Assembly (NCBI GenBank): GCA_965217775.1
Contig: CBDCJH010000002.1
Coordinates: 4,000,001-4,064,000 of the forward strand
Origin: Acidobacteriota bacterium
Lineage (GTDB): Bacteria; Acidobacteriota; UBA6911; RPQK01; JAJDTT01
Length of the DNA stretch: 64,000 bases
Direction: 5' to 3'
Below the pieces are notes generated by a model that was not told the DNA's origin, made no database searches, and was given only the letters and a program-made list of their open reading frames with translations. Shown one piece after another: positions 12,079-35,020 of the stretch. Position 1 is the first letter of the stretch, and each line of letters starts with the position of its first letter. Position numbers and translations under genes: made by a program.

Positions 12079-12291
12079 GGAACCATTGGACGGGCATCAA
12101 CCAGCCCGCGTTTCCCAGGAGCCCGCGCCGCAGGTGCCGATGCCCTGGGTGGTGTATCTTTGATTCCCCGCAGAAGCGGATCGACGGTCGCGTTGTAGGC
12201 TGCGGCTCGTTCGAATCGATGCTGCTCGATGTGACAAGTATTTCAGGCGGGAGCAAGAGCCCTCGTCATCCCGTGCTGGAAAGGGTTTGAC

Positions 12292-13074: not shown

Positions 13075-13131
13075 ACCGGCCGTCTCTCGCCCATTCACGA
13101 CCATTCACAATAATGAGTAAGGGAATAAGGG

Positions 13132-14141: not shown

Positions 14142-15212
14142 TCACCTCTGGGAGCGGATCAGCAGATAGAGAAACATGGGGCCGCCCAGTAGAGCTGTCA
14201 GAACCCCCACCGGCAGTTCCACCCCTCCAATGAGCCTGGACCGGACCACGCAGTCACAGACGAGCAGAAACCCGCCGCCCACCAGGAACGAAGCCGCCAT
14301 CACGAGTCGCTGATCGGTTCCCACCAGGCGGCGCACCATGTGCGGCACGATCAGACCCACGAAACCGATGGGCCCTACCGCCGAAACGACGCCGGCGACG
14401 GCCAGGGAGCCGAACACGAAGACCAGGATCCGGACCCGCCGGACCGACACGCCTCGTCCCGCCGCGTAGTCATCTCCCAGAGCCAAGGGGTTGAGCTGGT
14501 GCGACAGCCAGACGATCACCGCCACGCCCGGCAGCACGAACGGGAGAATGCTCCAGAGGTCGCCCCAAACGTAAAGGGAGTTCAAACTTCCCATGAGCCA
14601 GTGGTCCAGCACATGCAGGTCATAGGGATTGGCGGCCTGATGTCGCATCAACAGGATGAGAGCGCCGCAGATCAGGTTCACCGTGACCCCGGCCAGCAAC
14701 AGGGTCGCCATGCTGAGGCGTCCGGCCAGTCTCGCGATGCCGTAGATCAGTACGATGTCCAGGACCGCCGCCAGGTAGGCGGCCACCTGAATCGGAGAAA
14801 AGGGTCCCCAGGTGAGCCCCGAACCGAATCCGATGATGGCGCAGAAGGCGCCGACGGCCGCCGCCGTGGAGACCCCCAGAGTCGACGGCGCCACCAGGGG
14901 ATTGCGCAGGATCGCCTGCAGCGCCGCGCCGATGACTGCCAGTCCGGCGCCGGCTACGACACCCATCAAGGAACGGAGAATCCGATTGGCGACGATGCTG
15001 CGCAGGACCTGATTCTGATCCCTTTCGGGCAGTTCCTCCGGCAAAGGGGCCGCGAAGCCGTGCCGGGAGATCAATTGCAGCCCCGACAGTGCGTCGACCC
15101 CTTCGGCTCCGAAGAACGGGGAGATCGCCAGAGCCGTGACCAGAAAGAGGGAGCACATGCCCAGGGTTCCCAGCACATGGACGCTTCGATCGGTGGAGTC
15201 GTCCTTGATCAT
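14142..15212 (-). CDS. btuC: FecCD/BtuC-family ABC transporter permease
   Basis: LRNPLVAP.TLGV, LALGDD.AA..GV, GPIGFVGLIVPH, ELPVG; last gene of the B12 riboswitch operon. Confidence 0.88.
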   Translation of the reverse strand: MIKDDSTDRSVHVLGTLGMCSLFLVTALAISPFFGAEGVDALSGLQLISRHGFAAPLPEELPERDQNQVLRSIVANRILRSLMGVVAGAGLAVIGAALQAILRNPLVAPSTLGVSTAAAVGAFCAIIGFGSGLTWGPFSPIQVAAYLAAVLDIVLIYGIARLAGRLSMATLLLAGVTVNLICGALILLMRHQAANPYDLHVLDHWLMGSLNSLYVWGDLWSILPFVLPGVAVIVWLSHQLNPLALGDDYAAGRGVSVRRVRILVFVFGSLAVAGVVSAVGPIGFVGLIVPHMVRRLVGTDQRLVMAASFLVGGGFLLVCDCVVRSRLIGGVELPVGVLTALLGGPMFLYLLIRSQR

Positions 15213-16084
15213 CTCGGGGATACCCCGGGGTCTTGAAACCGGGAACCGGGCAGGACCACCGGAAGTCCGCTCCTGGCATCGCGGGTGACTTCAACGTCGC
15301 TGCCGTAGGATTCCGCCACCAGGGCCTGGGTCAACACCTGTTCGGGCCTGCCTTGGGCCCGGATCCTTCGGTCCGAGAGCAGGTAGATGACGTCGGCGAA
15401 ACGGGAGGCCAGATTCAGGTCGTGGGTGATGCAGAGAATGCCCCTGCCGGCTTGGGCCAGCCGCTTGAGGCGCTGTGAAAACGTCGCCAGATGGTGGACG
15501 TCCAGCCCCTTCCCCGGCTCGTCCAGCAGCAAGAGCGAGCTTTGCTGGGCCAGGATCCCGGCCAGGAGAACCGCTTGCTGCTCGCCGCCGCTGAGCGATT
15601 CGAACACCCGATTCCTCAGGCGCGCCACTCCCATTCGTTCCAGCGCCTGGCCCACGATCTTCCGGTCCTGCTCACCGGGCAGGGTCCACCATCGCTGGTG
15701 GGGAAAGCGGCCCAGAAGGACCACCTCCTGCACGGTGTACCCCTCAGGCGGCAGGACCTCCTGAGGCAGATAGGCGACGGTCCGGGCCCGGCCCAGGGGG
15801 GAGAGGTCAGCCAAGTCTCGCGGGCGTTTTCCGGACCCCGACTGGAGTTGGACGATCCCCTGTGCCGGCCGCAACAGACCGGCCAGGATCTTCATCAGAG
15901 TGCTCTTTCCGGCGCCGTTGGGACCGATGAGCATGGTGAGCGCTCCCGGCTCGACCGACAGTTGCACGTCCTCCAGCAATGATTCCTGCCCGGCGTAGCG
16001 GAAGGTCACATCCTGCGCGGTCAGGGAGAATGGAGCGTCCAACGGTTCTCCAGGCCCTCTTCTCTCATTTCCCACGTTGGACAA
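15209..16084 (-). CDS. btuD: ABC transporter ATP-binding protein (BtuD/FepC-like)
   Basis: Walker A GPNGAGKST, LSGGE signature, LLLLDEP, ITHDLN. Confidence 0.88.
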   Translation of the reverse strand: MSNVGNERRGPGEPLDAPFSLTAQDVTFRYAGQESLLEDVQLSVEPGALTMLIGPNGAGKSTLMKILAGLLRPAQGIVQLQSGSGKRPRDLADLSPLGRARTVAYLPQEVLPPEGYTVQEVVLLGRFPHQRWWTLPGEQDRKIVGQALERMGVARLRNRVFESLSGGEQQAVLLAGILAQQSSLLLLDEPGKGLDVHHLATFSQRLKRLAQAGRGILCITHDLNLASRFADVIYLLSDRRIRAQGRPEQVLTQALVAESYGSDVEVTRDARSGLPVVLPGSRFQDPGVSPR

Positions 16085-16158
16085 ATCCCAAATCCCAAAT
16101 CACAGATCGCGAACTGAAGCGCGGAGAGCCCCCAAGAGGGCACCCACAAGGGGTCGCC

Positions 16159-17112
16159 CTACGTTCCTTCATGGATGGCCTGGGCGATCAGACGGGCGGC
16201 CTGGGGAAGGCGCGGACCGGAACGCATGAGGAAACTTCCGTTCAAGACCCGGATCCGGCCGTCGCGGACCGCCGGCAATGTGGGGTGCATCCGCCATTCC
16301 GCCAGGAACCCATTTTTCACGTTCTCCGGAAGCTGGTCCCGGGAATCCAGCACCAGGATGACCTGAGGCCGGCGCACCAGAACCGTCTCCAGGCTCACCA
16401 TGGGCCACGGCTTTTCCACGTCGGCCGTGATGGAGCGTGCGCCTGCCCACTCGACCAATTCGGTCAGGAAGGAGCCCTTCCCCGCAGAGAACACCTGGTG
16501 GCTCTTGCTGCCCATCACCAGCAGGACGTCGAGTCGAGGCCGACCGGCATAGTGTTGCCGAATCTCCTCCAACTCTCGCCGCAGGCGCGCGGCCACGGGC
16601 TCCCCGGCCCCGGAATTTCCAAGAGCATCAGCCAACCGGACAGGGACTTGGAGCACGTCCCGGACCGAGGTCGATTCCAGGGCCAGAAACCGGATTCGCT
16701 TTCGGCGCGCGATGCGCTCCAGCTTGAACCCCTTTCCCAGCGCCACGATCAGGTCCGGCCGGAGGGCCAGGATCTTCTCCACGTTCGGTTCGACAGCGGT
16801 CCCGACCACGGGCAATCGGGCGGCCTCGGCCGGATGATCGCAGTAGGGCGACACCCCCACGATCCTGTCCTGCAAACCCATGGAGAAGAGAAATTCCACG
16901 ATGCTGGGGCCGTAGGCGATGACTCGCCGGACCTCAGACTCCGGTTCCGAAGCGGGTGAAGGTCCGCCCGGACGATCGGTTCGATCCGGCTCGCATCCCG
17001 CCAGCAGGAGCGCCGGCAAGAGAATCCGTACGCCTCGCCGGAGTCGATTTGCCAGCACGTCGAATGTCCACCCGGGCCCGGCCCCAATCGGGACCGCCGC
17101 CGCGGTCTCCAC
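16159..17112 (-). CDS. btuF: Corrinoid ABC substrate-binding lipoprotein (start probably further downstream)
   Basis: Lipobox LAGC; RIVGVSPYCDHP, NVEKILALRPDL, RSGPRL. Confidence 0.85.
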   Translation of the reverse strand: METAAAVPIGAGPGWTFDVLANRLRRGVRILLPALLLAGCEPDRTDRPGGPSPASEPESEVRRVIAYGPSIVEFLFSMGLQDRIVGVSPYCDHPAEAARLPVVGTAVEPNVEKILALRPDLIVALGKGFKLERIARRKRIRFLALESTSVRDVLQVPVRLADALGNSGAGEPVAARLRRELEEIRQHYAGRPRLDVLLVMGSKSHQVFSAGKGSFLTELVEWAGARSITADVEKPWPMVSLETVLVRRPQVILVLDSRDQLPENVKNGFLAEWRMHPTLPAVRDGRIRVLNGSFLMRSGPRLPQAARLIAQAIHEGT

Positions 17113-19149
17113 TTAGAGGATCGGCAAACGAATACCGACCCTGGCGTTGAACCTCGGAGAAGGATAGAAGGCCCGTTCCACCGGAAAGCCGCCCAGAACG
17201 CCGTACTCCGAATACTCCTGGTTCATGATGTTGTTGAAATCCGCAAACAGAGTAAAGCGGTCCCAACGGTAGCTGATTCTCGAATTGAGCAGGAAGTATC
17301 CGTCGTGCTTCCCGAAGCGGTTGCTCCAGTCGCTGTGAAAATATCTTGAGCCCACATAAGTTCCGTTGATGCTGGCGGTCAACCTGGGCGTGATCTGGAC
17401 GAAGAGCTCGGCCGCCAGCTTGTGCGCCGCCACGCCGGGGACCTGACGGCCCGCATACTGGCCGTCCCGGACTCTCGTCTGCACGACGCTGTAGTTGCCT
17501 CTCAGCGTGGCGAGGCCGCGGCTGATGCCGGACGAGAACTCCATTCCCCGTCTTCGAGTCCGGCCCTCGAAGTTCTCGTTGGCGCCGAATCCGAACGCTC
17601 CGCCGGCGGGATTGTAGAAGATCTCCCGGTCGGCATCGATCTGGAAGAAGTTCAACTCCCCGAAGAAACTGCCGCCGAAATAGTGCCGCAAGCCTGTCTC
17701 CAGCCCGTTGGACGTCTGGGGAGTGATGGCGCTGTCGATGGTGTTGGTGAAGAAGTTGAACATCTCGTTCAGGACCGGGTAACGGAAGCTTCCGGAATAG
17801 CCGGCGTAGACGTACGTATCGGGATTGAACCCGTAGTTGATTCCCGTCGTGAAGACGTTCTGATCGTAACTGGCCTGGTCAGGCATGCTGGGCGCGAACC
17901 GAAAGTCGGCCCGATCGTAGCGATAGCCGGCGGACAGCGCGAGGCTCTCCAGCGGATAGAATTCGTCATGGACGTAGAACCCCTGATTCACTTTTTGGAG
18001 CAGAAACGAGTTGGTGGACTCGAAGCCTCCGAAAGCGGACGTGTTCGCGATGTCCTCGGCCGCCTTGATCCAGTCGAATCCCATGCTCAGGTTGTTGGCG
18101 AGGCTGCCGATGCGCTCCCGTATCACCACTCGGGGGGACAGAGCCAGCGTGTCGGTCTGGGTCATCCCCTCGAAGGTCCCGCCGGAGAAGCGGCTGAAGA
18201 AAGAGGAATCTCGTCTTCGGGCGGAGAAATCCAAGGTCAGGGAACTCTGGCTCAGGAAGTTGAGCGTTGGCTGAATCAGAACGTAGGTGTCGCCGGTGTC
18301 GGCGAAGTCGTCCGGATTCAAGGTGTCTGTGCGCGCCGCTCCCGCTTGGAGTTGGCTCTCCCTGAACGCTCCGGGCAATCCAACGTCGTCGGTGTGGTAA
18401 CCGCCGCTCACATCCAACCTTCCGAGGTCGCCCAACTTGAAGCCCAAGCTGCCACCCAGGTCTCCACCCTGAATGTCGCTGTTGTCCCGATAGCCTTCGG
18501 ACTGAAAATAGCTTCCTGAAGCGCCGTACGAAACGTCACCGCGAGAACCGCCGACCTGGCCGCTGGGACGTAGACTTCCGTAACTGCCGCCGGACATCTC
18601 GAGCTCGAGGCGGGTCGGGCCCTCTTCCCGGGTGATGATGTTGATCACTCCGGCGCCGGCGTTGTCCCCGTAGAGAACGCTTCCCCGCCCCCCGCGCGTG
18701 ACCTCGATCCGCTTGACCCGGTCCAATGGGATCTGGAGCCAGTCGACCGCGGTGGAAGCCGGCAGATTCACTTTGCGCCCATCCACAAGGACCAGAGTAT
18801 TGCTTCCGGCCGTTTCGCCGAAGCCCCGAAGATCGACCGAGTAGTGGCGGTGGTTTCCCGTGATGTCGGTGACCTGGACGTTGACCAGGGTCCGGAGCAA
18901 GCCGGGAATATCGACGGCCGTGGAGGCGGCAATGTCCTCCTCGCTGATGACGGTCACGTTTGCGGGAACCCGGACCGACTTCTCCTGGTAGCGGCTCGCC
19001 GTCACCGTGACCTGTTCGGTCGTGGGCAGGCGAAGGGGCGTCACCTTTTCTTCCGCGGGCAGGATAACCGTCAGGAAACCGACCAGACCGAGCGTGCAGA
19101 ACGACCTGGACAGCAGGTCCGGAGCGGGCAATCGGCAATCGTTACGCAT
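17113..19149 (-). CDS. btuB: TonB-dependent receptor, probable cobalamin receptor
   Basis: TonB-box-like VTVTASR, plug motifs LVLVDG and RIEVTRGG..VLYGDNA.AGVINIIT; in the riboswitch operon. Confidence 0.85.
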   Translation of the reverse strand: MRNDCRLPAPDLLSRSFCTLGLVGFLTVILPAEEKVTPLRLPTTEQVTVTASRYQEKSVRVPANVTVISEEDIAASTAVDIPGLLRTLVNVQVTDITGNHRHYSVDLRGFGETAGSNTLVLVDGRKVNLPASTAVDWLQIPLDRVKRIEVTRGGRGSVLYGDNAGAGVINIITREEGPTRLELEMSGGSYGSLRPSGQVGGSRGDVSYGASGSYFQSEGYRDNSDIQGGDLGGSLGFKLGDLGRLDVSGGYHTDDVGLPGAFRESQLQAGAARTDTLNPDDFADTGDTYVLIQPTLNFLSQSSLTLDFSARRRDSSFFSRFSGGTFEGMTQTDTLALSPRVVIRERIGSLANNLSMGFDWIKAAEDIANTSAFGGFESTNSFLLQKVNQGFYVHDEFYPLESLALSAGYRYDRADFRFAPSMPDQASYDQNVFTTGINYGFNPDTYVYAGYSGSFRYPVLNEMFNFFTNTIDSAITPQTSNGLETGLRHYFGGSFFGELNFFQIDADREIFYNPAGGAFGFGANENFEGRTRRRGMEFSSGISRGLATLRGNYSVVQTRVRDGQYAGRQVPGVAAHKLAAELFVQITPRLTASINGTYVGSRYFHSDWSNRFGKHDGYFLLNSRISYRWDRFTLFADFNNIMNQEYSEYGVLGGFPVERAFYPSPRFNARVGIRLPIL

Positions 19150-19204
19150 CGGGTTTTCCTACAGATCAGAAACCCTTCCCCGGTCTATCCCCTCTCCTCT
19201 TTCC

Positions 19205-20128
19205 CTATTTTTCCCAGCGTCTCCACCCGGTCCCGCGGTGCCCAAAATCGAACAGTCCCGGATGCAGGATTTCCGCCAGTATCTCGGCCGATTCCACGAC
19301 GCGGGGTCCGGGCCGATTGAAGTACTGGTTCCCGTCCGTCACGAACACGCGCCCGTTCCGGACTGCGGACAGTTGCGGCCATCCCGGATGGGTCACCAGC
19401 GGCGGCATCTCGCCACAGGTGCGTTCGATATCGAAGCCACACGGCAATATGGCGATGACGTCAGGATCGGCAGCCGCAAGCTTCTCGAACTCGAAATAAC
19501 CGGAGTGTTTCCCCGACTCACCGAAAAGGTTCGCACCGCCGGCGCAGGAGACCAGCTCCGGCATCCAGTTGGCGGCGCTCATGAGAGGGTCGATCCACTC
19601 GATACACGCAATGGACGGACGGGTCCGCGCCGACTCCGCCCGTGCACGAATCCCTTGGAGCCGATCCGTGAGACGAGTCACGAGATCGTCACCGCGTCCC
19701 GGGTCCCCAAGGGCTGACGCCACCTTTCGGATGTCCTCCCAAACGTCGCTCAAGGACATGGGTTCCAAGGAGACGATCGCGGGCTGCGATGTGACGAGCT
19801 CGCAAACCGCCTTTTCCACGTCCTTCAGACTCACGGCGCAGACTTCGCACTGGGTCTGCGTGATGACGACGGTCGGCGCCAGACGATTCAGGAGGTCGGG
19901 ATCGACACGGTATACGGACAGCCCTTCGGAGACGATGGTTCGGACCTGGTCGTCGATAGCCCGACTGACGGCATCCACTTCGACCTTGGAACTCGAGCAG
20001 GTCGGAAGCCGAGAGACGGAGGCAGGAAAGTCGCACTCGTGGGATCGGCCTACGAGCTCGTCCTCGAAGCCGAGCCCACATACGATCTCCGTCGCACTGG
20101 CAATAAGTGAGACGATCCGATGTGACAT
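19205..20128 (-). CDS. BtuF-like cobalamin-binding protein without a signal peptide
   Basis: Begins directly at RIVSLIASATEIV; VGRSHECDFP, TQCEVCAV, EWIDP, YFNRPGPR. Confidence 0.8.
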   Translation of the reverse strand: MSHRIVSLIASATEIVCGLGFEDELVGRSHECDFPASVSRLPTCSSSKVEVDAVSRAIDDQVRTIVSEGLSVYRVDPDLLNRLAPTVVITQTQCEVCAVSLKDVEKAVCELVTSQPAIVSLEPMSLSDVWEDIRKVASALGDPGRGDDLVTRLTDRLQGIRARAESARTRPSIACIEWIDPLMSAANWMPELVSCAGGANLFGESGKHSGYFEFEKLAAADPDVIAILPCGFDIERTCGEMPPLVTHPGWPQLSAVRNGRVFVTDGNQYFNRPGPRVVESAEILAEILHPGLFDFGHRGTGWRRWEK

Positions 20129-20137: not shown

Positions 20138-20743
20138 TCAAACGCCATGGGAGGCGAACGAGTATGCCCGGGCCGGCACCGGCTGTTTCAAGGCCACACG
20201 ACTGAACAGCAGGGGGAGGAAAACCGCCATGCTGATCAACGTGTTCCGAAAATAGGGGATCCCTCGTACGTAGCAGTCGGTGAGGCCGGCGAGCGTCTGC
20301 GGATAGAGTGTTCTTCCACTGAATGCCCAGAGACCGAAATTGGTCACCAGGTAGAACCCTACCGACGAGATCAGTCCTGCGGCCGCCACCCGGGCCCATG
20401 AATGCTGACCCCTCAGAGCCAAGCCCGTTGTGGCCACCAGCGCGACCGACAGATAGACCACCGGTTGAAACGAGTAGAACGCCCAATCGAACCGCCCGGT
20501 CAGCGCCCAGATGCCCAGGTCGCCGATCAGGTAAGTCGCAAGGGGGATCGCATAGACCATGATCCGCCGACCGTAGAAAGCCCCGCCGAAGATGCAGACC
20601 GGCAGAATCGGAGAGAAATTCCACGGGTAGGCGGTATTTTCGGGATCGATCGAGATTCCGAAATGAGAGAGTGCGTAGGGCGCCAGCCGAGCGGCGAGGC
20701 CCAATGCAAGGAGCACCAGAATCAGAGAGAACCGAGGTTTCAT
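20138..20743 (-). CDS. DUF6580-like membrane protein (putative transporter component)
   Basis: PWNFSPI, FYLVTNFGLW, YPQTLAGL..CY..GIPYFRN; AAAGGAGG RBS before ATG 20743. Confidence 0.75.
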   Translation of the reverse strand: MKPRFSLILVLLALGLAARLAPYALSHFGISIDPENTAYPWNFSPILPVCIFGGAFYGRRIMVYAIPLATYLIGDLGIWALTGRFDWAFYSFQPVVYLSVALVATTGLALRGQHSWARVAAAGLISSVGFYLVTNFGLWAFSGRTLYPQTLAGLTDCYVRGIPYFRNTLISMAVFLPLLFSRVALKQPVPARAYSFASHGV

Positions 20744-20756
20744 CCATCTCCTCCTT

Positions 20757-21518
20757 TCACTCTTGGGGACGGTGTCGTCCAGCGTCGGCGCGGCGAGCTG
20801 GAACCAGGTCGCAGAACGCGAAGCCGTCACGCTCGACGACTCCTCCCGGAGACACGCAAACGGACCGGCGGAAGATCGGTCCATTGAAAACGAAAGTATG
20901 AAACTCGCCATTCTCGCCGCACGGGTCGACGCCGGGCGGCAGATCGGCCAGGAAAGCCTCATTGAATCGGAGGCCGGCGAAAGCCGCACCCAGGACCGCC
21001 AGGTTCACGCAGACGATCACGGCCTCGAATCCATTCCTGATGAACTGGCGTGCGAGCTTGCCGGTGTCCTGCTTCCAGAGCGGGAAGACGCACTCGAGAT
21101 TCCAAGCCGCCAGTTGATCTTCTCGGTAGGTTCTCAGGTCATCGAGAAAGATGTCGCCGAAGGCCACGCGCCGGATGCCGGAAGCCTGCAAGCGGGCGAA
21201 CGCATGCCCCATCTCGCGCTCATAGACGGCGTTGGTGCAGACTCGAGGAACCGCGACTTCCGTCATGGGAATCCCGATGGCACGGGACTGGTCCCTGAGC
21301 AGCGTGCGGCGAACGCCGTGCATGCTGACGCGGTCGAAATCGGCGTTGACCGTGGTCAAAAAGGACCTTACGAAGTACGTGTTCGCGCGGTGGATCTCCC
21401 ACAAGGCAAGCGAGCTGTCCTTTCCCCCACTGAAGCACATGGCGATGGCCTCGCCGTTCGTGTTCAGATTCGGATTAACTGCCGCACCCGCCGCTGATTT
21501 TGGTTCAACTCCGCTCAT
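20757..21518 (-). CDS. PP-loop ATPase of the diphthine--ammonia ligase family (DUF71/COG2102)
   Basis: FSGGKDS, RVSMHGVR, FGDIFL.DLR.YRE, VDPCGENGEFHTFV. Confidence 0.9.
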   Translation of the reverse strand: MSGVEPKSAAGAAVNPNLNTNGEAIAMCFSGGKDSSLALWEIHRANTYFVRSFLTTVNADFDRVSMHGVRRTLLRDQSRAIGIPMTEVAVPRVCTNAVYEREMGHAFARLQASGIRRVAFGDIFLDDLRTYREDQLAAWNLECVFPLWKQDTGKLARQFIRNGFEAVIVCVNLAVLGAAFAGLRFNEAFLADLPPGVDPCGENGEFHTFVFNGPIFRRSVCVSPGGVVERDGFAFCDLVPARRADAGRHRPQE

Positions 21519-21611
21519 GGTCCCTCGACCACGACCCGAAGGTTCGACGAGGAAGAAAGGCAGGCCCGAGCGCCCCTGTTCCCTCCCTCGAAGGTCCAGG
21601 TCAATGGAAAT

Positions 21612-21796
21612 GACGCCGGCAGGTCTTCGGACTCACGGGCAATCGGCTGTGGCCGATCCTACTGGCCGTCGCTTCCCAACTCCTCGGAGCCAGTGCTATG
21701 ACGGCGGTCGTTCCCGTTTACCGCTGCGGGGCAGTCCCGGACTTTCACCGGGTTCCCTCTTGCCGCTCCGGCTGGCCGGAGCACCAACGCGAAGTC
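21612..21796 (-). ncRNA. Cobalamin riboswitch
   Basis: Minus strand AAGAGGGAACCCGGTGAAAGTCCGGGACTGCCCCGCAGCGGT...GCACTGG...GGGAAG...GAGTCCGAAGACCTGCC (B12 box), directly upstream of the btu-like operon; boundaries approximate. Confidence 0.93.
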
Positions 21797-21911
21797 AACG
21801 TAACCGAAGCAGCAGGCCGGGTCAAGCCCGCAGGGGCCGTTGACCACGGTTCCAACCGCAACCGGATGGGCTTCTGCCCCCGATGGCGGCGGCTGGGATA
21901 GAATCCGCATC

Positions 21912-23258
21912 GTGCTCGGCTTGCGAGTCCTCTGGTCGACCTATCTGCTGATCGGCGTTCCGTTCGCCGTTGCCTGGGACCTGCAAGCCGGTGTTTCCGA
22001 TCCTGAGAAAGAATCCCCAGTTTCAAAGTCCGCTTCCCCGGAGGAGACGCGGGCCGGACGCTGGAAACAGAAGCGAATCGACAAGCGATCCCGCGTCACT
22101 CCGCCTCGTGCCGGCGGATTCGAGAAGGCTCTTCTCTGGGTTGAAAAGAGGGGATTGGGAGTGTCGCGCAACACCGGTTCCGCTGGAGTCCGTCCAGTCG
22201 TGGGAGTGCTGGGCCCGCGGTCCGGCGTCGCCCTGGGCGCCCGCTACTGGCGGCCGGACTTGGGACGCAGCCGGCTCGACGTGGCCCTGACGGGGGGCTA
22301 TTCCATCCGCGGATACCAACTTTATGACCTGCAGTTCGGCCGGATCCAGGACTTCGGTTCCGGGTTCGAACCCGACCCGGAAGACCACGGGATCCGGCAA
22401 CGAGCCGAGCCGGGCAACTCGACGGAACGGCTCAGCGTCTTCGGCCGGGTCCGCTACCGCAACTTTCCCAGGCAGAACTATTTCGGACCGGGCACGGACT
22501 CGAGGGAGGGAGACCGCAGCGATTATCGCCTGGAGGAGGTCTTCTACGGGAAAGCAGTCCGTTACCGGGCCAGCACATGGCTGCGGGGAGAGTGGGAGGT
22601 GGGGCTGCTTCAAGTGAACACCGGTCCCGGAACCGATCCCGGCGCGGTTCCCATCGGAAGCGTCTTCGACGACGTCACCACCCCCGGCCTCACCCACCAA
22701 CCCGGATTCTTCCGGACGAGAGCCGCTGTCACCGTGGACTTTCGGGACCAGCCGGAAAACAACCATTCGGGCGGCGTGGTGGACCTTTCCTGGTCCCGCC
22801 ATACCCAAGTGGGCGGGACCGACTACCATTTCTCCGGCTTCGCGGTGCAGGCGCGTCAATATCTGCCGTTGGGCTCCCGCCAGCGGGTTCTGGCCCTGCG
22901 TTTCCTGACCTCGACGACCCATCCCGAGAGCGGAAGCCGGGTGCCGTTTTACTTTCAGCCCACGCTGGGGAGCCCCCATATTCTGAGGGCCTTCAAGGAT
23001 CAGCGGTTCCGGGACCGAAATCTGATCTACCTCTCGGCCGAGTATCGTTGGGAGGCGGCGCCGGCGCTGGAGCTGGCCCTCTTCTACGACACCGGAAAGG
23101 TGTTTCGGAACCGGTCCGACTTCAACTTGATGGGACTCCGGAAGAACTTGGGATTCGGGATCCGATTCAAGAGCCGGGACCGTGTTCTCTTCCGGGTGGA
23201 TTTGGCGAGAGGCCGGGAAGATACGCGGATCTGCGTCACGGTCGGCCCGGCGTTCTAG
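21912..23258 (+). CDS. Omp85 (BamA/TamA-family) outer-membrane beta-barrel with a short N-terminus (start uncertain, ORF opens at 21840)
   Basis: LRAFKDQRFRD (variant of VRGY/F), SAEYRW, LFYDTGKV, GFGIRF, C-terminal Phe; no recognisable POTRA domains. Confidence 0.8.
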   Translation: MLGLRVLWSTYLLIGVPFAVAWDLQAGVSDPEKESPVSKSASPEETRAGRWKQKRIDKRSRVTPPRAGGFEKALLWVEKRGLGVSRNTGSAGVRPVVGVLGPRSGVALGARYWRPDLGRSRLDVALTGGYSIRGYQLYDLQFGRIQDFGSGFEPDPEDHGIRQRAEPGNSTERLSVFGRVRYRNFPRQNYFGPGTDSREGDRSDYRLEEVFYGKAVRYRASTWLRGEWEVGLLQVNTGPGTDPGAVPIGSVFDDVTTPGLTHQPGFFRTRAAVTVDFRDQPENNHSGGVVDLSWSRHTQVGGTDYHFSGFAVQARQYLPLGSRQRVLALRFLTSTTHPESGSRVPFYFQPTLGSPHILRAFKDQRFRDRNLIYLSAEYRWEAAPALELALFYDTGKVFRNRSDFNLMGLRKNLGFGIRFKSRDRVLFRVDLARGREDTRICVTVGPAF

Positions 23259-23267
23259 GGGGAAGAT

Positions 23268-24926
23268 TTGGAGTTGATGCACCCTCGGATCACGTCTCTG
23301 GTCCTGCTGCTGGGCTGCTTGACGGCTGTTACCCCCTCCATCCACGCGCAGAAGTTTCTGCCCGATGATCCCCTCCGGGTCGATGCCGACGATCTTCCCA
23401 TTCCCAGGCCCGAGTCCCGCTCCCTCAGCCAGATCATGGACCTGCTGGAGAATTCGTTCTCCAACCGTGCCGCCCAGGGAGAGGGCATCCTCCCGGCCCA
23501 GAACGTGAACACGCTGGGCGAGGTCCCCGATTCCAGTTGGTTTCAGAATCGGCTGGGCAGACGGTCCATGAGTCCGGCCGAGTTGGCACGAGGTCCCAAC
23601 CGGCAAGCACCTGACGTCTCCCGGCCCTGGCAGGTCGTTTCCGGGAAATCGGAGGGAATCACTCCCGGATTCACCATCCGCGACAGCAGGGGAGAAGTCT
23701 ATTTCCTCAAGTTCGACCCGCGAGATCATCCTCAACTGGCCACCTCCGCGGAAGCCATCAGCACTCGATTCTTCCACGCCTTCGGTTATCACGTCCCCGA
23801 AAACCACCTGGTCCGGATCTCACCCGGCAACTTGCTGGCGGACTCCGATTCGGTGCTGCGCGAGGGACGGGGAAAGAAGCGGGTCATGGTGCAGGCGGAC
23901 GTGGAACGGATTCTCCGGCTGGTTCCCAGACTGCCGGACGGAAAAATCCAGGTGCTGGCCAGCCGGCTTCTGCCGGGACGTCCCCTGGGGCCGTTCGAGT
24001 ACTTCGGAACCCGGAGCGACGACGCCAACGACGTCTTCCGGCACGAGAACCGGAGAGAGCTGCGAGGCCTCCGGATCTTCGCCGCCTGGTTGAACCACGA
24101 CGATTCCCGAAGCATCAACACGCTGGACATGTATCTCCCCCGGGGCGAACAGGGGTACGTGAAACACCACCTGCTGGATTTCGGCTCCTGCCTGGGAAGC
24201 GGAAGCGTCGAGATGCAGAGTCTCCGGGGCGGCAACGAGTACCTGCTGGAGCGGACTCCCATTCTCAAGGCAGCCGTGACTCTGGGCATCTGGGACCGTC
24301 CCTGGAGACGTGTGCACTACCCCGAGCACCCCGGCGTCGGGCGTTTTGAAGCAGACTACTTCCAGCCTCAGGATTGGAAACCCGAGTACCCCAACCCGGC
24401 CTTCGAACGCATGCTCCCGGAAGACGCCTTCTGGGCGGTCCGCATCCTGATGCGGCTGAACGAGGAATCGATTCGGGCGGTGGTGCGGACGGGGCAACTG
24501 GTCGACGCCGAGTCGGAGGAGTATCTGGTCCGGACGCTCCTGGAGCGGAGCCGGAAGATCGTTCGCCACTATCTGGCGGGAATCAATCCCCTGGACGGAT
24601 TTCGGGTCCGGGATCGAAATGGTTCCGTGGCCCTGGAGTTTTCGGATCTGTCCCTGCAGGAAGCCCCGAAGCGGAACCGGAACTATCGATACCAATGGTT
24701 CAGCTTCGACAACGGAAGCCAACAAAGTGAATCCCTGGGTCCTGCAGCGTCTTCGGCCAGCCTCTCCATCCCCCTTCCCCGGGCCAGACCGCAATTCTTG
24801 AAGGTGCGCATCCGACCCGTCGAAATCCAGGATGCCGGCGGTTCTCACCCGGTGTGCGTCTACCTACGGACTCAGCCCGAAATGGCGGTCGCGGGGATTG
24901 ATCGCGGGAAGGGCGCCGAACCGTAG
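23268..24926 (+). CDS. Secreted protein with an atypical kinase-like fold (HipA/CotH/PI3-4K-like motifs)
   Basis: Signal peptide ending IHA-Q; KSEGITPG..YFLKFD, ATSAE, WLNHDDSRSINTL, LLDFGS. Confidence 0.6.
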   Translation: MELMHPRITSLVLLLGCLTAVTPSIHAQKFLPDDPLRVDADDLPIPRPESRSLSQIMDLLENSFSNRAAQGEGILPAQNVNTLGEVPDSSWFQNRLGRRSMSPAELARGPNRQAPDVSRPWQVVSGKSEGITPGFTIRDSRGEVYFLKFDPRDHPQLATSAEAISTRFFHAFGYHVPENHLVRISPGNLLADSDSVLREGRGKKRVMVQADVERILRLVPRLPDGKIQVLASRLLPGRPLGPFEYFGTRSDDANDVFRHENRRELRGLRIFAAWLNHDDSRSINTLDMYLPRGEQGYVKHHLLDFGSCLGSGSVEMQSLRGGNEYLLERTPILKAAVTLGIWDRPWRRVHYPEHPGVGRFEADYFQPQDWKPEYPNPAFERMLPEDAFWAVRILMRLNEESIRAVVRTGQLVDAESEEYLVRTLLERSRKIVRHYLAGINPLDGFRVRDRNGSVALEFSDLSLQEAPKRNRNYRYQWFSFDNGSQQSESLGPAASSASLSIPLPRARPQFLKVRIRPVEIQDAGGSHPVCVYLRTQPEMAVAGIDRGKGAEP

Positions 24927-25013
24927 ACTGGCTCTCGAACCCAAAGTCCCAAGTCCGCGGGCGGGACGACGGCACCCGTGGCAGAAGTCGCCGGAGGTGC
25001 CTATACTGATTCC

Positions 25014-26387
25014 ATGAACCGCCGTGAACTGTTGTCGCTGATGGGCGCCGGCTTCGGCACGGTGGGATTGTCCGGGTCCCTGGGCGCGGCCTCCCGAGGC
25101 GGCTCCACGTCAGCGGGAGTCCCGCATTTCCCCGCCCGTGCCAAACACGTGATCTTCCTCTTCCTCAACGGCGGCCTCTCCCAGGTGGACAGCTTCGACC
25201 CCAAACCGGAGCTGGACCGGCACCACGGGAAACCCATGCCTGGCCCCAAGATCCGGACCGACAGCGCCACCGGAAACCTGATGAAGTCCCCGTTCCGATT
25301 CCGGCCACGGGGTGAGAGTGGAATCCTGGTGTCCGAGATCTTCCCCCGGATCGGAGGTCTCATCGACGACTTCTGCGTGATCCGGTCCATGTACTCGGAC
25401 AACGGCAATCACGTCCCTTCCCTCTACCTCATGAACTGCGGTCACCAACTGGCCGGCCACCCCTCCATGGGCTCGTGGATCACCTACGGACTGGGCTCGG
25501 AGAATGAGAATCTACCCGCTTTCGTGGTCCTTTGTCCCGGGTATCCGGTGGGCGGTTCCCAGCTCTGGTCCTCGGCTTTCCTGCCCAACTCGTACCAGGG
25601 GACCTACATCCCCAATAACGAGACCGACCCGGAGAAACTGGTCCGCAACGTCCGCAACTCCTCTTTCAGCCCGCACCAACAGCGGCGCCAGCTGGAACTC
25701 CTGGACCGGCTCAATCGGCGCTACCTGGACCGGGTTGGGCATCAGCCGCAGCTGGAATCGGGAATCCAGGCCATGGAAGTGGCCTTCCGGATGCAGATGG
25801 AGGCGCCGTTGGCACTGGACGTCACTCGGGAGAGGGGCTCGACTCGCTCCAGGTATGGCGACACCGACTTCGCCCGCGGTTGCCTGATGGCGCTCCGCCT
25901 CGTCGAACACGGCGTGCGCATGGTCCAGGTCTTCTACGGCAAGTCCCAACCCTGGGACAGCCATGACGACATCCTGGACCATCGGATCCTGGCGGCGGAC
26001 GCGGACCGGGCCATCGCCGCCTTGATTCAGGACCTGAAGCTGCGGGGCCTGTTCGAAGAAACCCTTCTCATCGTGGGGAGCGAGTTCGGCCGAACCCCTA
26101 TGATTCAGAACAGCGGACTAGTGAAGTACGGGTATGGCCGGGACCATAACGTCCACGGCTACACCACGCTCCTGACCGGGGCCGGCGTCCGGGGAGGCAT
26201 GACGTACGGCGCCACCGACGATTTCGGCTTCAAGGCGGTGGAGAATCGCGTCCACCCCCACGACCTGCACGCCACCGTCCTGCACCTGCTGGGACTGGAT
26301 CACACGAAGCTCACCTATCGCTACGGAGGACGGGACTTCCGCCTGACCGACGTGGGAGGCCGGGTGATCGGGGAAATTCTGAGCTGA
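25014..26387 (+). CDS. DUF1501 domain protein (Tat signal)
   Basis: MNRRELL, AKHVIFLFLNGGLSQVDSFDPKP, WDSH, SEFGRTP, GRDH, RLTDV; TATACT 6 nt before the ATG suggests a leaderless start. Confidence 0.9.
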   Translation: MNRRELLSLMGAGFGTVGLSGSLGAASRGGSTSAGVPHFPARAKHVIFLFLNGGLSQVDSFDPKPELDRHHGKPMPGPKIRTDSATGNLMKSPFRFRPRGESGILVSEIFPRIGGLIDDFCVIRSMYSDNGNHVPSLYLMNCGHQLAGHPSMGSWITYGLGSENENLPAFVVLCPGYPVGGSQLWSSAFLPNSYQGTYIPNNETDPEKLVRNVRNSSFSPHQQRRQLELLDRLNRRYLDRVGHQPQLESGIQAMEVAFRMQMEAPLALDVTRERGSTRSRYGDTDFARGCLMALRLVEHGVRMVQVFYGKSQPWDSHDDILDHRILAADADRAIAALIQDLKLRGLFEETLLIVGSEFGRTPMIQNSGLVKYGYGRDHNVHGYTTLLTGAGVRGGMTYGATDDFGFKAVENRVHPHDLHATVLHLLGLDHTKLTYRYGGRDFRLTDVGGRVIGEILS

Positions 26388-26499: not shown

Positions 26500-26826
26500 C
26501 TACCAGCGGCCTCGCCCGCGGCTCCCGTAACCGCCACCGCCGCCGCCGCCGCCGCCATATCCGCCGCCGCCGGACCGTCTCTCACGAGGACGCGCCTCGT
26601 TCACCGTCAAGGTCCTGCCGCCCAACTGACTGCCGTTCAAGGCACTGATGGCCTTTGTGGCGTCCGCGTCGTCCATTTCGACGAACCCGAACCCACGAGA
26701 CTGGCCGGTCATTCTGTCGGTGATCACTCGGGCCGATTGCACGGGACCGAATTCGGAGAATACCTCCTCCAACTGATCATCGTTGACTGCGTAGGGCAGT
26801 CCCCCTACATAAATGTTCTTCCTCAT
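26500..26826 (-). CDS. RRM RNA-binding protein with Gly-rich tail
   Basis: RNP2 IYVGGL, RNP1 RGFGFVEM, VNEARPRE; AGGAGG RBS. Confidence 0.95.
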   Translation of the reverse strand: MRKNIYVGGLPYAVNDDQLEEVFSEFGPVQSARVITDRMTGQSRGFGFVEMDDADATKAISALNGSQLGGRTLTVNEARPRERRSGGGGYGGGGGGGGGYGSRGRGRW

Positions 26827-29794: not shown

Positions 29795-31228
29795 CTAAAC
29801 CAGAAGCTCCTTGAGGATCTCACCGTGCACGTCGGTGAGACTCATGTCCCGCCCGCCGAACCGGAAGGTCAGCTTGTCGTGGTCCAGTCCGAGCTGATGG
29901 AGAATCGTGGCGTGGACGGAGTGGATCGAGGTCGGCTTTTCGACGACTGAGTTTCCAAATTCGTCCGTCGTCCCGTAGGTGAAGCCTGGTTTGAAGCCCC
30001 CTCCGGCCAGGAAGATGGAGTAACCGTTCACATGATGGTCGCGGCCCACACCCTCCTTGAGCTTGGGAGTATGCGGGGTCCGGCCCATCTCGCCGCCCCA
30101 GAGCACGATCGTGGAATCGAGCAGCCCACGCTGCTTCAAGTCCTGGATCAGCGCTCCGACGCCCTGATCGGTGATCATGGAGTTTTCTTCGTGGTACTTC
30201 TTCAGATTGCTGTGCTGGTCCCAGGGAGAGTTGTTGGCATGGGTCAGGGGACAGGCGACCTCCACGAAGCGCACGCCCCTCTCCACCAGACGCCGGGCAC
30301 GGAGACACTGCAGACCGTAGAACTTCTTGTATTCGTTTGAGCTGTCGAGCCCATACATCTTCTGGGTGGCCTCGGCCTCGCCGCTCACGTCGGCCAGTTC
30401 GGGCATCGCCGTCTGTAGATGGAACGCCGTCTCATAGTTCTTGATGACCGCCTCGATGGCGTTGTCCCCGGTCGTGGCGGCGAACCTCATGCTCTGCTCC
30501 CGGAGCAGGTCGAGTTTGCGCCGCTGCACCGCCGGATGATCCGCCGGCATGATGTTTTCCATCACAGGATTTCGAGCTCGCAGCACGTTGGGCGCATGCG
30601 ATGCGGGCAGGAAGGAATTGCTGAAATTCTCCCAACCGCCGTTGGGAACCCTCAATCCGTTGTCCAGCAGGACATAGTTCGGCAGGTTGTCCCGCTCACT
30701 GCCGAGGCCGTAGGAGACCCACGACCCGAAGCTGGGTGACCGGCCCGTAAGGCGCCCGGTGTGCATCAGCAGGTTCTGCTGGCCGTGCAGCGGAACCTGA
30801 CCCACCATGGAGCGGACCAGGCAGATGTCGTCCACCACCTTGGTGATGTGGGGAAACAGTTCGCTGACCCAGATTCCGCTCTTGCCGCGCCGCTTGAACT
30901 CCCAGGGGGTACCCAACCAGACTCGGTCGGCCGTCGATTGCGACTTTTCCGAAACCGCCGATTTCCCGATCGCTTCTCCCTCGTGTTTCTTCAACCTGGG
31001 CTTGTAGTCGAACAGGTCGACATGGCTCGGCCCCCCGTCCATGAAGCAGAAGATGACGTTCTTCGCTTTTGCGGGGAAATGGGTCTTGCCGTCGACCAAC
31101 GAGGCTCCCAAGCCGTACTCTTCGGCCAGCAGCGCCGACAGGGCCAGGGCCCCGAAACCGGTGGAAGTCTTGCGCAACAATTCACGGCGGCTGATGGGTG
31201 GGTATTCGATCAGTCCCTTAGCGTACAT
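29795..31228 (-). CDS. DUF1501 domain protein (Tat signal)
   Basis: SRRELL, AKNVIFCFMDGGPSHVDLFDYKP, WDQH, GEMGRTP, GRDHH. Confidence 0.9.
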   Translation of the reverse strand: MYAKGLIEYPPISRRELLRKTSTGFGALALSALLAEEYGLGASLVDGKTHFPAKAKNVIFCFMDGGPSHVDLFDYKPRLKKHEGEAIGKSAVSEKSQSTADRVWLGTPWEFKRRGKSGIWVSELFPHITKVVDDICLVRSMVGQVPLHGQQNLLMHTGRLTGRSPSFGSWVSYGLGSERDNLPNYVLLDNGLRVPNGGWENFSNSFLPASHAPNVLRARNPVMENIMPADHPAVQRRKLDLLREQSMRFAATTGDNAIEAVIKNYETAFHLQTAMPELADVSGEAEATQKMYGLDSSNEYKKFYGLQCLRARRLVERGVRFVEVACPLTHANNSPWDQHSNLKKYHEENSMITDQGVGALIQDLKQRGLLDSTIVLWGGEMGRTPHTPKLKEGVGRDHHVNGYSIFLAGGGFKPGFTYGTTDEFGNSVVEKPTSIHSVHATILHQLGLDHDKLTFRFGGRDMSLTDVHGEILKELLV

Positions 31229-34200
31229 AGATGAACTCCGTAGTATTGAAGAGGGCGTGGGCCGTGTCCTTCCATACCGCCACTGACTGCAGGAGGTCCT
31301 CCGAGGACCGGCTGCCATCCGAGCGGCTCTGATGAAAAGAGTTGAAATCATGAACCGCCTGGGTCCACCGGGTCAGTTCGGCCGACTCCGGCTCCCGCCC
31401 CAGGGCATACCGGAACATGACGGTCAGCCGCTGCTCGGGCGAATCGTGCGATTTGGAGATCAACCGGCGGGCCCAAAATTCGGCCTGCCCCGCAACGAAG
31501 GGATCGTTGAGCATGGTCAGGGCCTGATTGGGCACATTGGTGACGTCACGCCGGCCGGTGGGCATCTTCGGAATGGGCTTGTTGAACGTCTCCAGGAACT
31601 TGTACGGTTCCATGATCGTGTTTCGGAGGTAGATGGAACGCCGTCCGGCCCCGTCCAAGGGCCCCGAGAAATAGGTCTGATCCGCCTTGACCACCTTGCT
31701 CTTGGGCCGGTAGGGATCCACGAAACCGCCCAGGAGCTGAGGATCGAGACGTCCGGAGACGGCGAGCATGGCGTCCCGGATGGACTCGGCGTCCAAGCGG
31801 TGGAGCGGATAATGGTGCAGCATCCGATTGGAGGGGTCCACCTCATGGGCCCGGCCGCGGGCCTGATTCGATTGCTGAAACGTCTCCGTCATCACCAGCA
31901 TCCTGACCAGCTTCTTCACCGACCAGCCCTCTTGGACGAAGCGGCCGGCGAGATAGTCCAGCAGTTCGGGGTGAGAGGGCCGGTCGCCGAGATGACCGAA
32001 GTCATCGGGGGTTCGGACAATTCCGGATCCGAAAACCCAGTGCCAGACCCGATTCACGAAGACGCGGGCCGTGAGGGGGTTCTCGGAACTGGCGATCAAT
32101 CGGGCCAGGTCCAGGCGCCCGCTACCCTTGGGGTCTGAGCCGTTGGACGGGCCCGACAGCACCCGGATATGTCCGCGCGGCACCCGCTCACCATAATCCG
32201 TGTACACGCCACGGACGTTGAGGCGGTAGTCGCGGCCCGGATCCAGGTCGGCCATGCTCAGGACCGTCACCGGGTCGACCAGCTTCTCCTCGGCCTCGCG
32301 GTAGGAGGCGACCAACTCCCAGATCTCTTTTCGAGCAAGCATGTTACCGGGCAGCAGATGGTTCGGCACCAGTCCAGCTTCCAGCATCCAGTTGATCAAG
32401 AGGACGTCCTCTTCGTCCGCGCGACCCTCGGCCCAGTCTTCCACCGACGCCGCAATCCACTCTCCGTAGCGGGCGGAGAGCTGTGGAAGATCGACCGGAG
32501 CATCAGCAGCGAACAAAGAAGTGAACCGGCCCAGCTCGTCGGCGGGCGATTCCTTCTTGTCGTGCAGGAATACGCGGGTCACACCGAACCAACTCCGGGC
32601 ATCCCGGGCCTCGGCCGCCGAGACGTCGGGACCGAGTCCCACTCTCGGGGGAAAGTTGGGGTTCGAGGCCTTGGTCGCCAACTCGATGTAGATTCGAGTC
32701 TCCTCGGATTCGTCGGGACTCGGCGAACGATTGGTTCTGGCGTCTGCCGTATTCGAATGGCGGATCCAGTGGGGACGGTGGTCCTTCAGATAAGTCTGCC
32801 GCTCCGTCCGGAACGAATTGTCCACGATCAGCCGTTGAGCGCTGTAGTCGCCGCCGATCACCTCCATGCTGAGGTAGGACCGGCCGGAATGATTCAGAAA
32901 CGGGGTCCGGACCGCCCCGTTGAGCCGGGGCGAGAGCGCGTGTGTGAACAGTCCGGCGGGCAGGAGCATTTCCACCGCCCCGGAACCCTCGAGCGCCACC
33001 GTGAAATCGCCGTTTTCGACCCAACCGTGGCGCACTCCGACCCCATCCACCGACCATCCCTCGGGAAGGTCTCTGCGGCCGAAGTCGGCGGCGAGGGAAA
33101 AGTCCCTGGCGTTGTTCTCAATTCGTTCCCGGCGAGCCTGCGAATATTCCCCGGCGAGCTTCCGCCAGGCCATTTCCAGTTGCTCACCCTCGATCAGGGA
33201 TTCCTGTATTTCCAACCAGGGAAAGAGGGGGCTGGACATGGTGTCCCGTGCAGCCGATTCGGCCGCTTCCTCCTCGTCCTCTTTCGTGGTCTGTCCCTCG
33301 AAGGGCCTGGGACTGATCGCCTCCTCCCAGACGGCGAGACGAGCCCGGTCCAGATCCTGCGCCGCCTCTGCCGCATCCATCCGGCCTTCGACGACGGCTT
33401 GCGCCGCCATCAGGTACCGGGGGATCTGCCGCGCTTCCTCCAACCACCAGTCCGCCAGCGGCTTGCGGAGTGTCGTCTTCAAAGCCGCCAGCTCTTCCAG
33501 AACCTTCCGGTTGCGTTCCGGGAGGTCCAGCGTATGGGTCACCCAGCGTGAGCTCATGAACACGCCGCCCAGAGCGTAGTAGTCCTGCTGGGCGATGGCG
33601 TCATATTTGTGATTGTGGCAGCGGGCGCAGGCGACCGTGGTCGCCTGGAACGCCTTGGAGAAGGTGTCGACCTTGTTGTCGAGCATCTCCTGGTGGATGC
33701 CGTTGAACATCAGGCTGTCCCCGTGACGGTTCTCACCCATCTGGAACCAGGTGGGGCCGATCATCGACTCGTTGATCTGCCTGGCGGCGTCGATTCGCGG
33801 TTGTGACAGGAGATCACCGGCAATGTGCTCGTGTACAAGCTGGTCGAAGGGGATGTCCGCGTTGAAGGCGCGGATCAGATAGTTCCGATACAGCCACGAA
33901 CCCTTGATCTGGGCATCCGTTTCATAGCCATAGGTATCACTGTAACGGACCACGTCCATCCAGTGCCGCGCCCACTCCTCTCCAAAATGGGACGAGTCCA
34001 ACAGGCGGTCCACCCCCTGAGCATAAGCGGCTTCAGGGTCGGGATTCCGGAGGAAGGCTGCAACTTCCTCGGGCTTCGGGGGAAGTCCGGTCAGCAGGTA
34101 GCTCACCCGCCTCAACAGGGTGCGCCGATCGGCGCGCGGCGCCGGCGTCAAGCCATTCGCCTCCAGCTTGGCCAGGAGAAAGCGATCGACGGGTTGATTC

Positions 34201-34757: not shown

Positions 34758-35020
34758 CCGTGAACGACTGGTCTGCACGAAGGTCGGATTAGGCCATTTG
34801 TCGGAGAGACGCCGAAGAATTACCCGAGCACGGTACACGGTATTTTGACACCTGGACACCCGACCATTTGGTTTGAACGTATGGGCCGTAGATTACGACA
34901 TCCATTCCACCACTGTCAATCGCCGGAGTTGGTCGCAGACCGGCTCGCGCGTCAGCCTTTGCTCCACGCTTCGGACCAACCTATCATGCCTTGGCCCGCC
35001 GGCTGACTCCGGAGTCGATG

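Follow-up and report, generated by a model that had tools for sequence, protein, structure and literature searches.

In two-partner secretion systems such as TpsB/TpsA and CdiB/CdiA, the gene of an Omp85-family barrel lies beside the gene of its exported partner, TpsB barrels having two POTRA domains and the TpsA cargo an N-terminal TPS domain. The Omp85 family itself is recognized by a loop-6 motif of the (V/I)RG(Y/F) type and by an FxDxG strand. One of its classes, noNterm Omp85, has neither POTRA nor any other periplasmic domain, and is given as being of unknown function both in the paper that defined it (Heinz and Lithgow 2014, PMC4104836) and in the one that extended it with Leptospira paralogues (PMC11358297). 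Here we describe a barrel gene of this type (gene A, 21912-23258) and the gene that follows it (gene B, 23268-24926), both found in the open reading frame (ORF) list on the plus strand of a 64,000-nt stretch of an Acidobacteriota genome (contig CBDCJH010000002.1), the whole of which we call the window. The neighbor of gene A encodes a kinase-like protein, whereas the noNterm neighbors discussed for Leptospira in PMC11358297 are adhesin-like lipoproteins, and the term 'kinase' occurs 0 times in PMC4104836 and in PMC11358297. In the open-access literature searched, no paper was found that connects Omp85 proteins to kinase-like partners. We conclude that gene B represents a new exported kinase-like family joined to noNterm Omp85, and that the two genes very probably constitute a functional module of an Omp85 barrel and an exported protein with a kinase fold. 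By a narrower balance of the evidence, which comes from sequences and models, we favor the reading that the product of gene B would be an active phosphotransferase working outside the cytoplasm, and that its own barrel would either retain it at the outer membrane or let it through.

Kinases outside the bacterial cytoplasm are rare, and with them comes the question of what donates the phosphate. The Golgi lumen in which Fam20 acts is supplied with ATP, and CotH acts in the mother cell of spore-forming bacteria; Fam20C and CotH have a kinase-like fold that is active outside the cytosol, as we propose for gene B, but share only ~10% identity with its product, and neither is known to be linked to a membrane barrel. 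CtkA of H. pylori (PDB 3akj/3akk), the best structural match, is likewise a kinase that leaves the cytoplasm, although it depends on a type IV secretion system and not on an Omp85 barrel, according to PMC5536186. In function, the protein stands nearest to the Fam20-type kinases of the secretory pathway and to secreted bacterial kinases like CtkA, and by descent to HipA_2.

The original prediction described two same-strand genes 9 bp apart, the first of them an Omp85-like barrel with a short N-terminus, and both the reading frames and their spacing were recovered when read back. Gene A stops with a TAG whose last base is 23258, a TTG at 23268, 9 nt on, is the first start codon available after it, and an in-frame ATG follows at 23277, 18 nt past the stop; gene B is thus 552 aa long from the TTG or 549 aa from the ATG, the latter fitting its 549-aa database copy (P0001). 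For gene A, the GTG at 21912 gives 448 aa, the same length as in its closest relatives, and an alternative TTG start lies further upstream, at 21840. A promoter and terminator scan of 21400-25200 found no terminator-like site on the plus strand between or after the two genes, and was uninformative, with nothing exceeding the shuffled expectation.

The barrel assignment holds by several measures. Gene A scores 46.3 bits against Pfam Omp85 (PF01103; gathering cut-off 24, E 5.5e-12) and 81 bits against the NCBIfam model NF047779 (Omp85_fam), which is under the curated cut-off of 200. Its AlphaFold2 (AF2) model (predicted local distance difference test, pLDDT, 82.3) has 16 predicted strands within residues 92-444, the best Foldseek match of this model is the E. 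coli BamA barrel (9cs1_A, E 6.5e-13), with TamA (4c00) matched as well, and named homologues are labelled 'BamA/TamA family outer membrane protein' or similar. Among 49 barrels from syntenic loci, R359 of the loop-6 LRGF-type motif and R55 are invariant, and F391, D393 and G395 of the FxDxG motif are conserved in at least 90%. Between the signal peptide and strand 1, the model places ~65 low-pLDDT residues with two helices and zero strands, a stretch too short for a POTRA domain and without its strand-helix pattern, and a Pfam scan at E up to 1 listed no POTRA family. The same scan did not list DUF5982, a motif that spans the first two strands in one type of noNterm Omp85 (PMC11358297), the Pfam copy used not being confirmed to hold a DUF5982 model. 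Being a 16-stranded Omp85 barrel without POTRA, gene A is of the noNterm type.

We examined the pairing of the two genes in 64 loci from other genomes, each encoding a gene B relative. A barrel homologue was present in 60 of them, in 59 cases upstream and on the same strand, with an estimated gap to the kinase gene of 150 nt or less in 53 loci (median 8 nt). Of the four loci that lack a barrel, three begin at the kinase gene and have no upstream sequence, and L015 shows no barrel in the ~2 kb upstream of its kinase gene. Rearrangements are seen in single loci: the order is reversed in L053 with the genes still abutting, a DDE transposase separates barrel and kinase gene in L022 (2950-4725), and the whole pair is duplicated in tandem in L032 (188-6708). 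The loci include metagenome-assembled genomes (MAGs) labelled Vicinamibacterales, Bryobacterales, Solibacteraceae, Longimonas, Oligoflexia, delta proteobacterium and Omnitrophota, as well as one labelled Arcobacter. The synteny proposed as a check in the original prediction is borne out in many genomes and several phyla. Trees built for 39 barrel-kinase pairs, leaving out the mis-paired row L032_2, agree closely (patristic distances, r = 0.95; reached by 0 of 999 permutations), and the clades {L009,L010,L011,L042}, {L018,L019,L020,L023} and {L024,L025,L027} are common to both, each with 100% support in the Shimodaira-Hasegawa-like approximate likelihood ratio test (SH-aLRT). These are paralogue clades, some genomes holding two or three barrel-kinase pairs, and the congruence of the trees, paralogues included, indicates that barrel and kinase gene are duplicated together and go on to diverge together. 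Chance adjacency is ruled out by the recurrence in these loci together with the congruent trees.

ORF clustering over the 64 loci yielded no third conserved gene, only lineage-specific neighbors, with the reservation that ORFs were called greedily, a crude approach for GC-rich DNA, and that small genes may have escaped it. One group of loci carries a MacB/FtsX exporter, a GT87 glycosyltransferase and an M1 peptidase near the pair, and another carries MFS, BNR, CHAD and ParA-like genes. In L018 (396-3271), and also in L019, L020 and L023, a second intact kinase-like paralogue has as its neighbor a calcineurin-like phosphoesterase of the Metallophos family that carries a signal peptide for export, and the two genes diverge from the barrel-kinase pair; these four loci, which are mutually close relatives, may represent a kinase/phosphatase pairing as judged from their gene content.

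We then turn to the fold of the gene B product. Its AF2 model is of high confidence (pLDDT 94; predicted template modelling score, pTM, 0.92; input alignment of 104 sequences), and nearly all of its Foldseek matches in the PDB are kinases, led by H. pylori CtkA at E 1.1e-4; the seven matches at E <= 0.001 comprise six CtkA chains and one Fam20 complex, after which come kinases with weaker E-values. VIA-align, a structure search independent of Foldseek, gave Z-scores of 13.8 for CtkA, 13.5 for Fam20C, 12.3 for PI4KII-alpha and 11.9 for CotH, followed by actin-fragmin kinase (11.4), HipT (11.2), HipA (10.6) and MavQ (10.2). The CtkA match aligns 224 residues at a root-mean-square deviation (rmsd) of 3.8 A and 15% identity, and covers model residues 120-443; Fam20C gives the longest alignment (255 residues), starting from model residue 37. 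Fibronectin type III (FN3) domains match residues 439-546 (Z 6.5-7.3, rmsd ~3 A, 84-96 residues aligned), and this FN3-like domain lies outside the CtkA-aligned region, the solved CtkA chains having ~275-296 residues. The modelled domain is bilobal and has the beta3 lysine, alphaC glutamate, Asp/Asn loop and DFG-type aspartate in order. Both searches thus return atypical kinases, as had been anticipated, and since the highest-ranking matches differ by no more than 1 Z unit, no single kinase family can be named from structure.

The spread of these matches bears on the nature of the substrate. PI4KII-alpha and MavQ score on par with protein kinases, one member of the Fam20 family is a sugar kinase, and the pair is flanked in one lineage by the GT87 glycosyltransferase and the MacB/FtsX-type exporter, all of which would suit an active lipid or glycan kinase whose substrate would be lipopolysaccharide, exopolysaccharide or a lipid of the outer membrane and which the barrel would bring to the membrane. 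As protein, lipid and sugar kinases are inseparable by Z-score, the flanking genes are lineage-specific and no lipid-binding feature was identified, we consider this improbable as a specific proposal; it departs from an exported phosphotransferase with its own barrel in substrate only.

Sequence searches placed the protein in no described family. A Pfam scan of gene B at E up to 1 gave only a sub-threshold HipA_2 match, with nothing from NCBIfam, and listed no match to Fam20C (PF06702), CotH (PF08757) or PI3_PI4_kinase (PF00454), for which atlas feature scores of 0.79-0.81 were rated as leads only. The family profile found just a chance match among PDB sequences (E 0.54), and the 30 nearest atlas clusters share no common Pfam family. 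The family is nonetheless sizeable, with 4,816 proteins at E <= 0.001 among 8,000 candidates scored, and with 3,194 representatives at E <= 0.001 in a library clustered at 50% identity, 924 of them at E <= 1e-30; none of the 120 matches listed has a recorded Pfam domain, and 'hypothetical protein' is the sole name among them. With every curated cut-off missed, gene B belongs to none of the HipA_2, Fam20 or CtkA-type families.

The relationship to HipA_2 (PF20613) is a distant one. The Pfam score of gene B is 13.9 bits over residues 123-187 against a cut-off of 27, and sub-threshold matches at the same place occur in 9 of 54 homologues (12.8-18.1 bits, all under the cut-off). Nine true HipA_2 members, which exceed the cut-off with 45-79 bits and were taken from the same phylum's genomes, were made into a profile and compared in hhalign with the 104-sequence family. 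The two aligned along 143 columns that reach from the Gly-rich loop to DFG (probability 89.4%, E 2e-6), and K148, E162, D279, N284 and D304 paired with K36, E50, D134, N139 and D153 of HipA_2, all five invariant there. In the model, K148 is located on the third N-lobe strand and E162 in the next helix, D279 and N284 lie in the loop past helix 263-275, and D304 comes after the two strands that follow the catalytic loop. On the strength of this pairing and placement, together with a Pfam score under the cut-off, the gene B product is best regarded as a distant relative of HipA_2-type kinases and not as a member of the family. The two are alike in the order and spacing of the N-lobe and catalytic-loop motifs, but the HipA_2 proteins considered here are ~260 aa long and by inspection have no evident signal peptide, whereas gene B has one and adds an N-terminal wrap of ~90 residues, extra C-lobe helices, the FN3-like domain and an insertion of ~60 residues that carries an invariant DDxND..H..RRxxR block. 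This block, DDANDVFRHENRRELR in the window copy, sits ahead of the helix preceding the catalytic loop. The genome of the window itself contains no HipA_2 match at E up to 10.

The motifs KSEGITPG, FLKFD, TSAE, NHDD...N and DFG and the Sec signal that the original prediction had named were all re-read at exact coordinates (Table 1), and their key residues are kept in most homologues. Counted over 104 family representatives, D279 is kept in 90 and replaced by E in 5 more, and K148, D/E279, N284 and D304 are jointly kept in 87. The window copy retains the whole set, namely the Gly-rich loop, K148, E162, D279, N284 and D304. Such retention of the catalytic set points to purifying selection on catalysis.

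Export appears to be general in the family, as all 104 representatives have a signal-peptide-like or lipobox-like N-terminus by inspection. Close relatives show a signal-peptidase-I type ending followed by KFxPDDP at the mature start. A simple lipobox pattern matches 33 of the 104, a figure that includes probable false positives such as the window protein, and lipobox forms in Longimonas (L049) and in the Oligoflexia MAG (L053) also adjoin a barrel.

Taken together, an exported phosphotransferase with a dedicated barrel would operate as follows. The gene B product would cross the inner membrane via Sec, its relatives in other lineages being lipoproteins, and would consist of the N-terminal wrap, an atypical kinase-like catalytic domain and the C-terminal FN3-like domain. 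Gene A would supply an outer-membrane barrel in which a two-helix periplasmic stub replaces POTRA; the two proteins would bind physically, and the barrel would either anchor its partner at the outer membrane or pass it to the surface. Phosphotransfer outside the cytoplasm is predicted from the residues retained. Whether the enzyme would face the periplasm or the surface, whether it would act on protein, lipid or glycan, and from which donor it would take phosphate are conjectural parts of this scheme. Of the exported kinase with a dedicated barrel that had been put forward earlier, fold, residues and synteny stand, while the analogy with type V two-partner secretion does not: POTRA is absent from the barrel, no TPS domain is detected in the partner by Pfam at E up to 1, and this partner, unlike TpsA, has a compact globular kinase fold, so that the pair is not a two-partner secretion system. 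A fuller picture, which we offer tentatively and hold to be rather doubtful, is that of an unrecognized form of extracytoplasmic phosphorylation, in which a new family of kinases, periplasmic or on the cell surface, would be docked to or displayed by a dedicated POTRA-less Omp85, accompanied by Fam20A-like pseudokinase paralogues and fed by a donor other than cytoplasmic ATP or by scavenged extracellular ATP. If true, this picture would provide the first functional assignment for a noNterm Omp85 branch.

A number of observations weigh against an active exported phosphotransferase. All matches to known kinase families are under their curated cut-offs, and the HipA match is visible only with the nine-sequence HipA_2 profile, the single sequence of E. 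coli K-12 HipA giving no meaningful alignment with the family profile (probability 0.8%). The residues that are strictly invariant in the 104 representatives (D252, D255, H259, R263, R266, G173, G310, D386, W389 and R427) are not the canonical catalytic ones; going by the alignment, we read them as a probable structural core or second site, for example a metal- or phosphate-binding one. At least one catalytic residue is missing in 17 of the 104, often several together, and these degenerate members retain D252, D255, H259, R263 and R266. Among the 35 long forms examined (33 longer relatives, including P0130 and P0196, plus two more, P0195 among them), K148 is present only in P0271 and D279 in none. 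At one locus (L067), such a long degenerate form lies 7 nt downstream of a homologous barrel (hhalign 100%, E 2.6e-69), and its continued adjacency indicates that pairing with the barrel is independent of catalysis. The distribution across the phylum, described below, is patchy. Finally, the diderm periplasm is, to our knowledge, generally held to be free of ATP, and the phosphate donor is for that reason not evident.

The long forms fall into two size classes, of ~970 aa and ~1,150-1,176 aa. All but the poorly aligned P0301 keep D150, D252, D255, H259, R263, R266, D386 and W389, and H300 and D304 are each replaced in one further form, by R in P0130 and by G in P0288, respectively. The long subfamilies (P0130, P0195, P0196 and P0271-P0301) have C-terminal extensions of ~420 and ~600 residues, in which no Pfam family and no match to a PDB sequence was found. 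The original prediction also proposed a search for fusions, and no barrel-kinase fusion was seen among the longer relatives; the two compared with the barrel, P0195 and P0130, gave a probability of barrel similarity of 0.1%.

These forms bring in the possibility that the gene B product is a non-catalytic partner, in which the kinase fold is only a scaffold or a module for ligand binding, employed to plug, gate or assist the barrel, and in which the kinase residues are relics; the accessory proteins of BamA, and LptE with LptD, are models for a partner of this kind. The family's invariant residues are non-catalytic, the long forms lost D279 and, except for P0271, K148 while keeping those invariant residues, a catalytically degenerate form is still paired with a barrel, and no ATP source is known in the periplasm, all of which would follow if catalysis were dispensable. 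Against this, the window protein and 87 of the 104 representatives keep K148, D/E279, N284 and D304, the Gly-rich loop is well kept, and the alphaC position holds E or D in 90 of 104, and we accordingly rate a purely non-catalytic role as unlikely. Active kinase families often include pseudokinase paralogues, such as Fam20A beside Fam20C, and degenerate members are therefore no argument against the activity of others; the gene B family, too, mixes active-type and degenerate members. It can be viewed, from its alignments, as an enzyme family with pseudo-enzyme branches, a state that cuts both ways on activity.

Gene B is present in one copy in the window's genome, and of 121 genomes sampled evenly across the phylum, 24 match it at E <= 1e-10, with 1-4 matches each, a tally that takes in the window genome (G000) and an unpublished genome (G049). 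In three RNA libraries labelled sponge metagenome, contigs at a depth of 2-4 match pieces of both genes, some pieces of 108-174 nt differing at 0-2 positions. No contig of these libraries bridges the junction of the two genes, coverage is fragmentary and DNA carry-over is possible, leaving a weak hint that both genes are expressed. Near-identical pieces of 21700-25100 occur in RNA and DNA libraries labelled sponge metagenome, and in eight studies overall, which suggests that the organism or a close relative inhabits marine sponges.

A secreted effector or toxin kinase, released by the barrel and acting with ATP within other bacteria or a host, would account for part of this picture, the barrel then taking the part of a transporter of two-partner secretion or contact-dependent inhibition. 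It would fit the patchy spread with 1-4 matches per carrier genome, the near-identical pieces in sponge-metagenome RNA libraries, and the presence of CtkA as the nearest solved structure and of the HipA and HipT toxins among the matches; an ATP-free periplasm, moreover, would leave an exported kinase inert unless it acted elsewhere. CtkA itself needs a secretion system for its pro-inflammatory activity on host cells, as reported in PMC5536186. The locus is poorly equipped for such a role, with POTRA absent, the TPS domain undetected, no recognizable translocation domain and, in the 64 loci, no conserved third gene as an immunity candidate; many loci come from MAGs whose titles indicate groundwater or other non-host sources, and many relatives are lipoproteins, which would be retained on the cell. 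We hold an effector role to be very unlikely.

An exported phosphotransferase acting with its own barrel remains the reading we prefer. Apart from catalysis, one noNterm Omp85 branch has a fixed, co-diversifying partner, making the role of the barrel directly testable. That neither Pfam nor NCBIfam has a model for an exported family of 3,194 representatives with an intact catalytic set leaves a wide gap in annotation, and the family's intact and degenerate members, side by side, constitute a natural experiment on which residues are functionally important.

Table 1. Features of the barrel-kinase locus, in window coordinates; counts are out of 104 family representatives where so marked.
Feature	Position	Strand	Basis
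Gene A, noNterm-type Omp85/BamA-like outer-membrane barrel, 448 aa	21912..23258	+	Pfam PF01103, AF2, Foldseek
Signal peptide of barrel, residues 1-25, ending AVA/WD	21912..21986	+	Translation; modelled helix 2-25; by inspection, not by a predictor
Short periplasmic N-terminal region, helices 47-59 and 69-80, holds R55	22050..22151	+	DSSP, low pLDDT
16-stranded beta-barrel, residues 92-444	22185..23243	+	Strand list of AF2 model
Loop-6 Omp85 signature, consensus LRGF, here ILRAF, R359	22974..23000	+	49-barrel alignment and translation
FxDxG strand motif, here FYDTG	23082..23096	+	49-barrel alignment and translation
Gene B, exported protein with kinase-like fold	23268..24926	+	ORF list, AF2, structure searches
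Sec-type signal peptide, residues 1-27, ending IHA/QK	23268..23348	+	Translation, N-terminus comparison
Conserved N-terminal segment of mature protein, residues 28-119, with KFxPDDP and EVPDSSWFxNR	23349..23624	+	Alignment; high-confidence model
Atypical protein-kinase-like domain, residues 120-438	23625..24581	+	VIA-align, hhalign
Gly-rich loop KSEGITPG, K127-G134	23646..23669	+	K127 in 86, G130 in 95, G134 in 86 of 104
FLKFD motif	23703..23717	+	Translation
Beta3 lysine K148	23709..23711	+	92/104; pairs with HipA_2 K36
TSAE motif	23742..23753	+	Translation
AlphaC glutamate E162	23751..23753	+	E in 69, D in 21 of 104; pairs with HipA_2 E50
Most conserved family block DDANDVFRHENRRELR, D251-R266	24018..24065	+	D252, D255, H259, R263, R266 invariant
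Catalytic loop NHDDSRSIN, with D279 as putative base and N284	24093..24119	+	D279 90/104, N284 94/104
HHLLDFG stretch	24165..24185	+	Translation
DFG motif, D304-F-G	24177..24185	+	D304 101/104; pairs with HipA_2 D153 (IDHG)
C-terminal fibronectin-type-III-like beta-sandwich, residues 439-546	24582..24905	+	VIA-align

In the window, the pair has a DUF1501 gene downstream and a divergent, diphthamide-synthase-like gene upstream. The downstream DUF1501 gene is common only to the closest relatives (6 loci among L001-L008 by ORF clustering). Two DUF1501 genes are found among the ORFs at 24978-26387, 29795-31351 and 31218-34859, one of them beside a 1,213-aa PSCyt1/PSCyt2/PSD1 (DUF1549/DUF1553) protein, a pairing typical for Planctomycetes-type genomes. 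Further upstream, 14142-20128 holds a TonB-dependent receptor (17113-19149, minus strand), a FecCD permease, an ABC ATPase and two Peripla_BP_2 proteins, and looks like an uptake cluster for iron-siderophore or cobalamin, with a DUF6580 membrane protein (20138-20989) located just past it. Four ORFs, at 6353-7558, 7668-10715, 12097-13104 and 36749-38476 (401, 1,015, 335 and 575 aa, respectively), match no Pfam family at E <= 1e-5 and are putative genes. On the minus strand, 26500-26826 encodes a small RNA-binding protein of the RRM type whose tail is rich in glycine.

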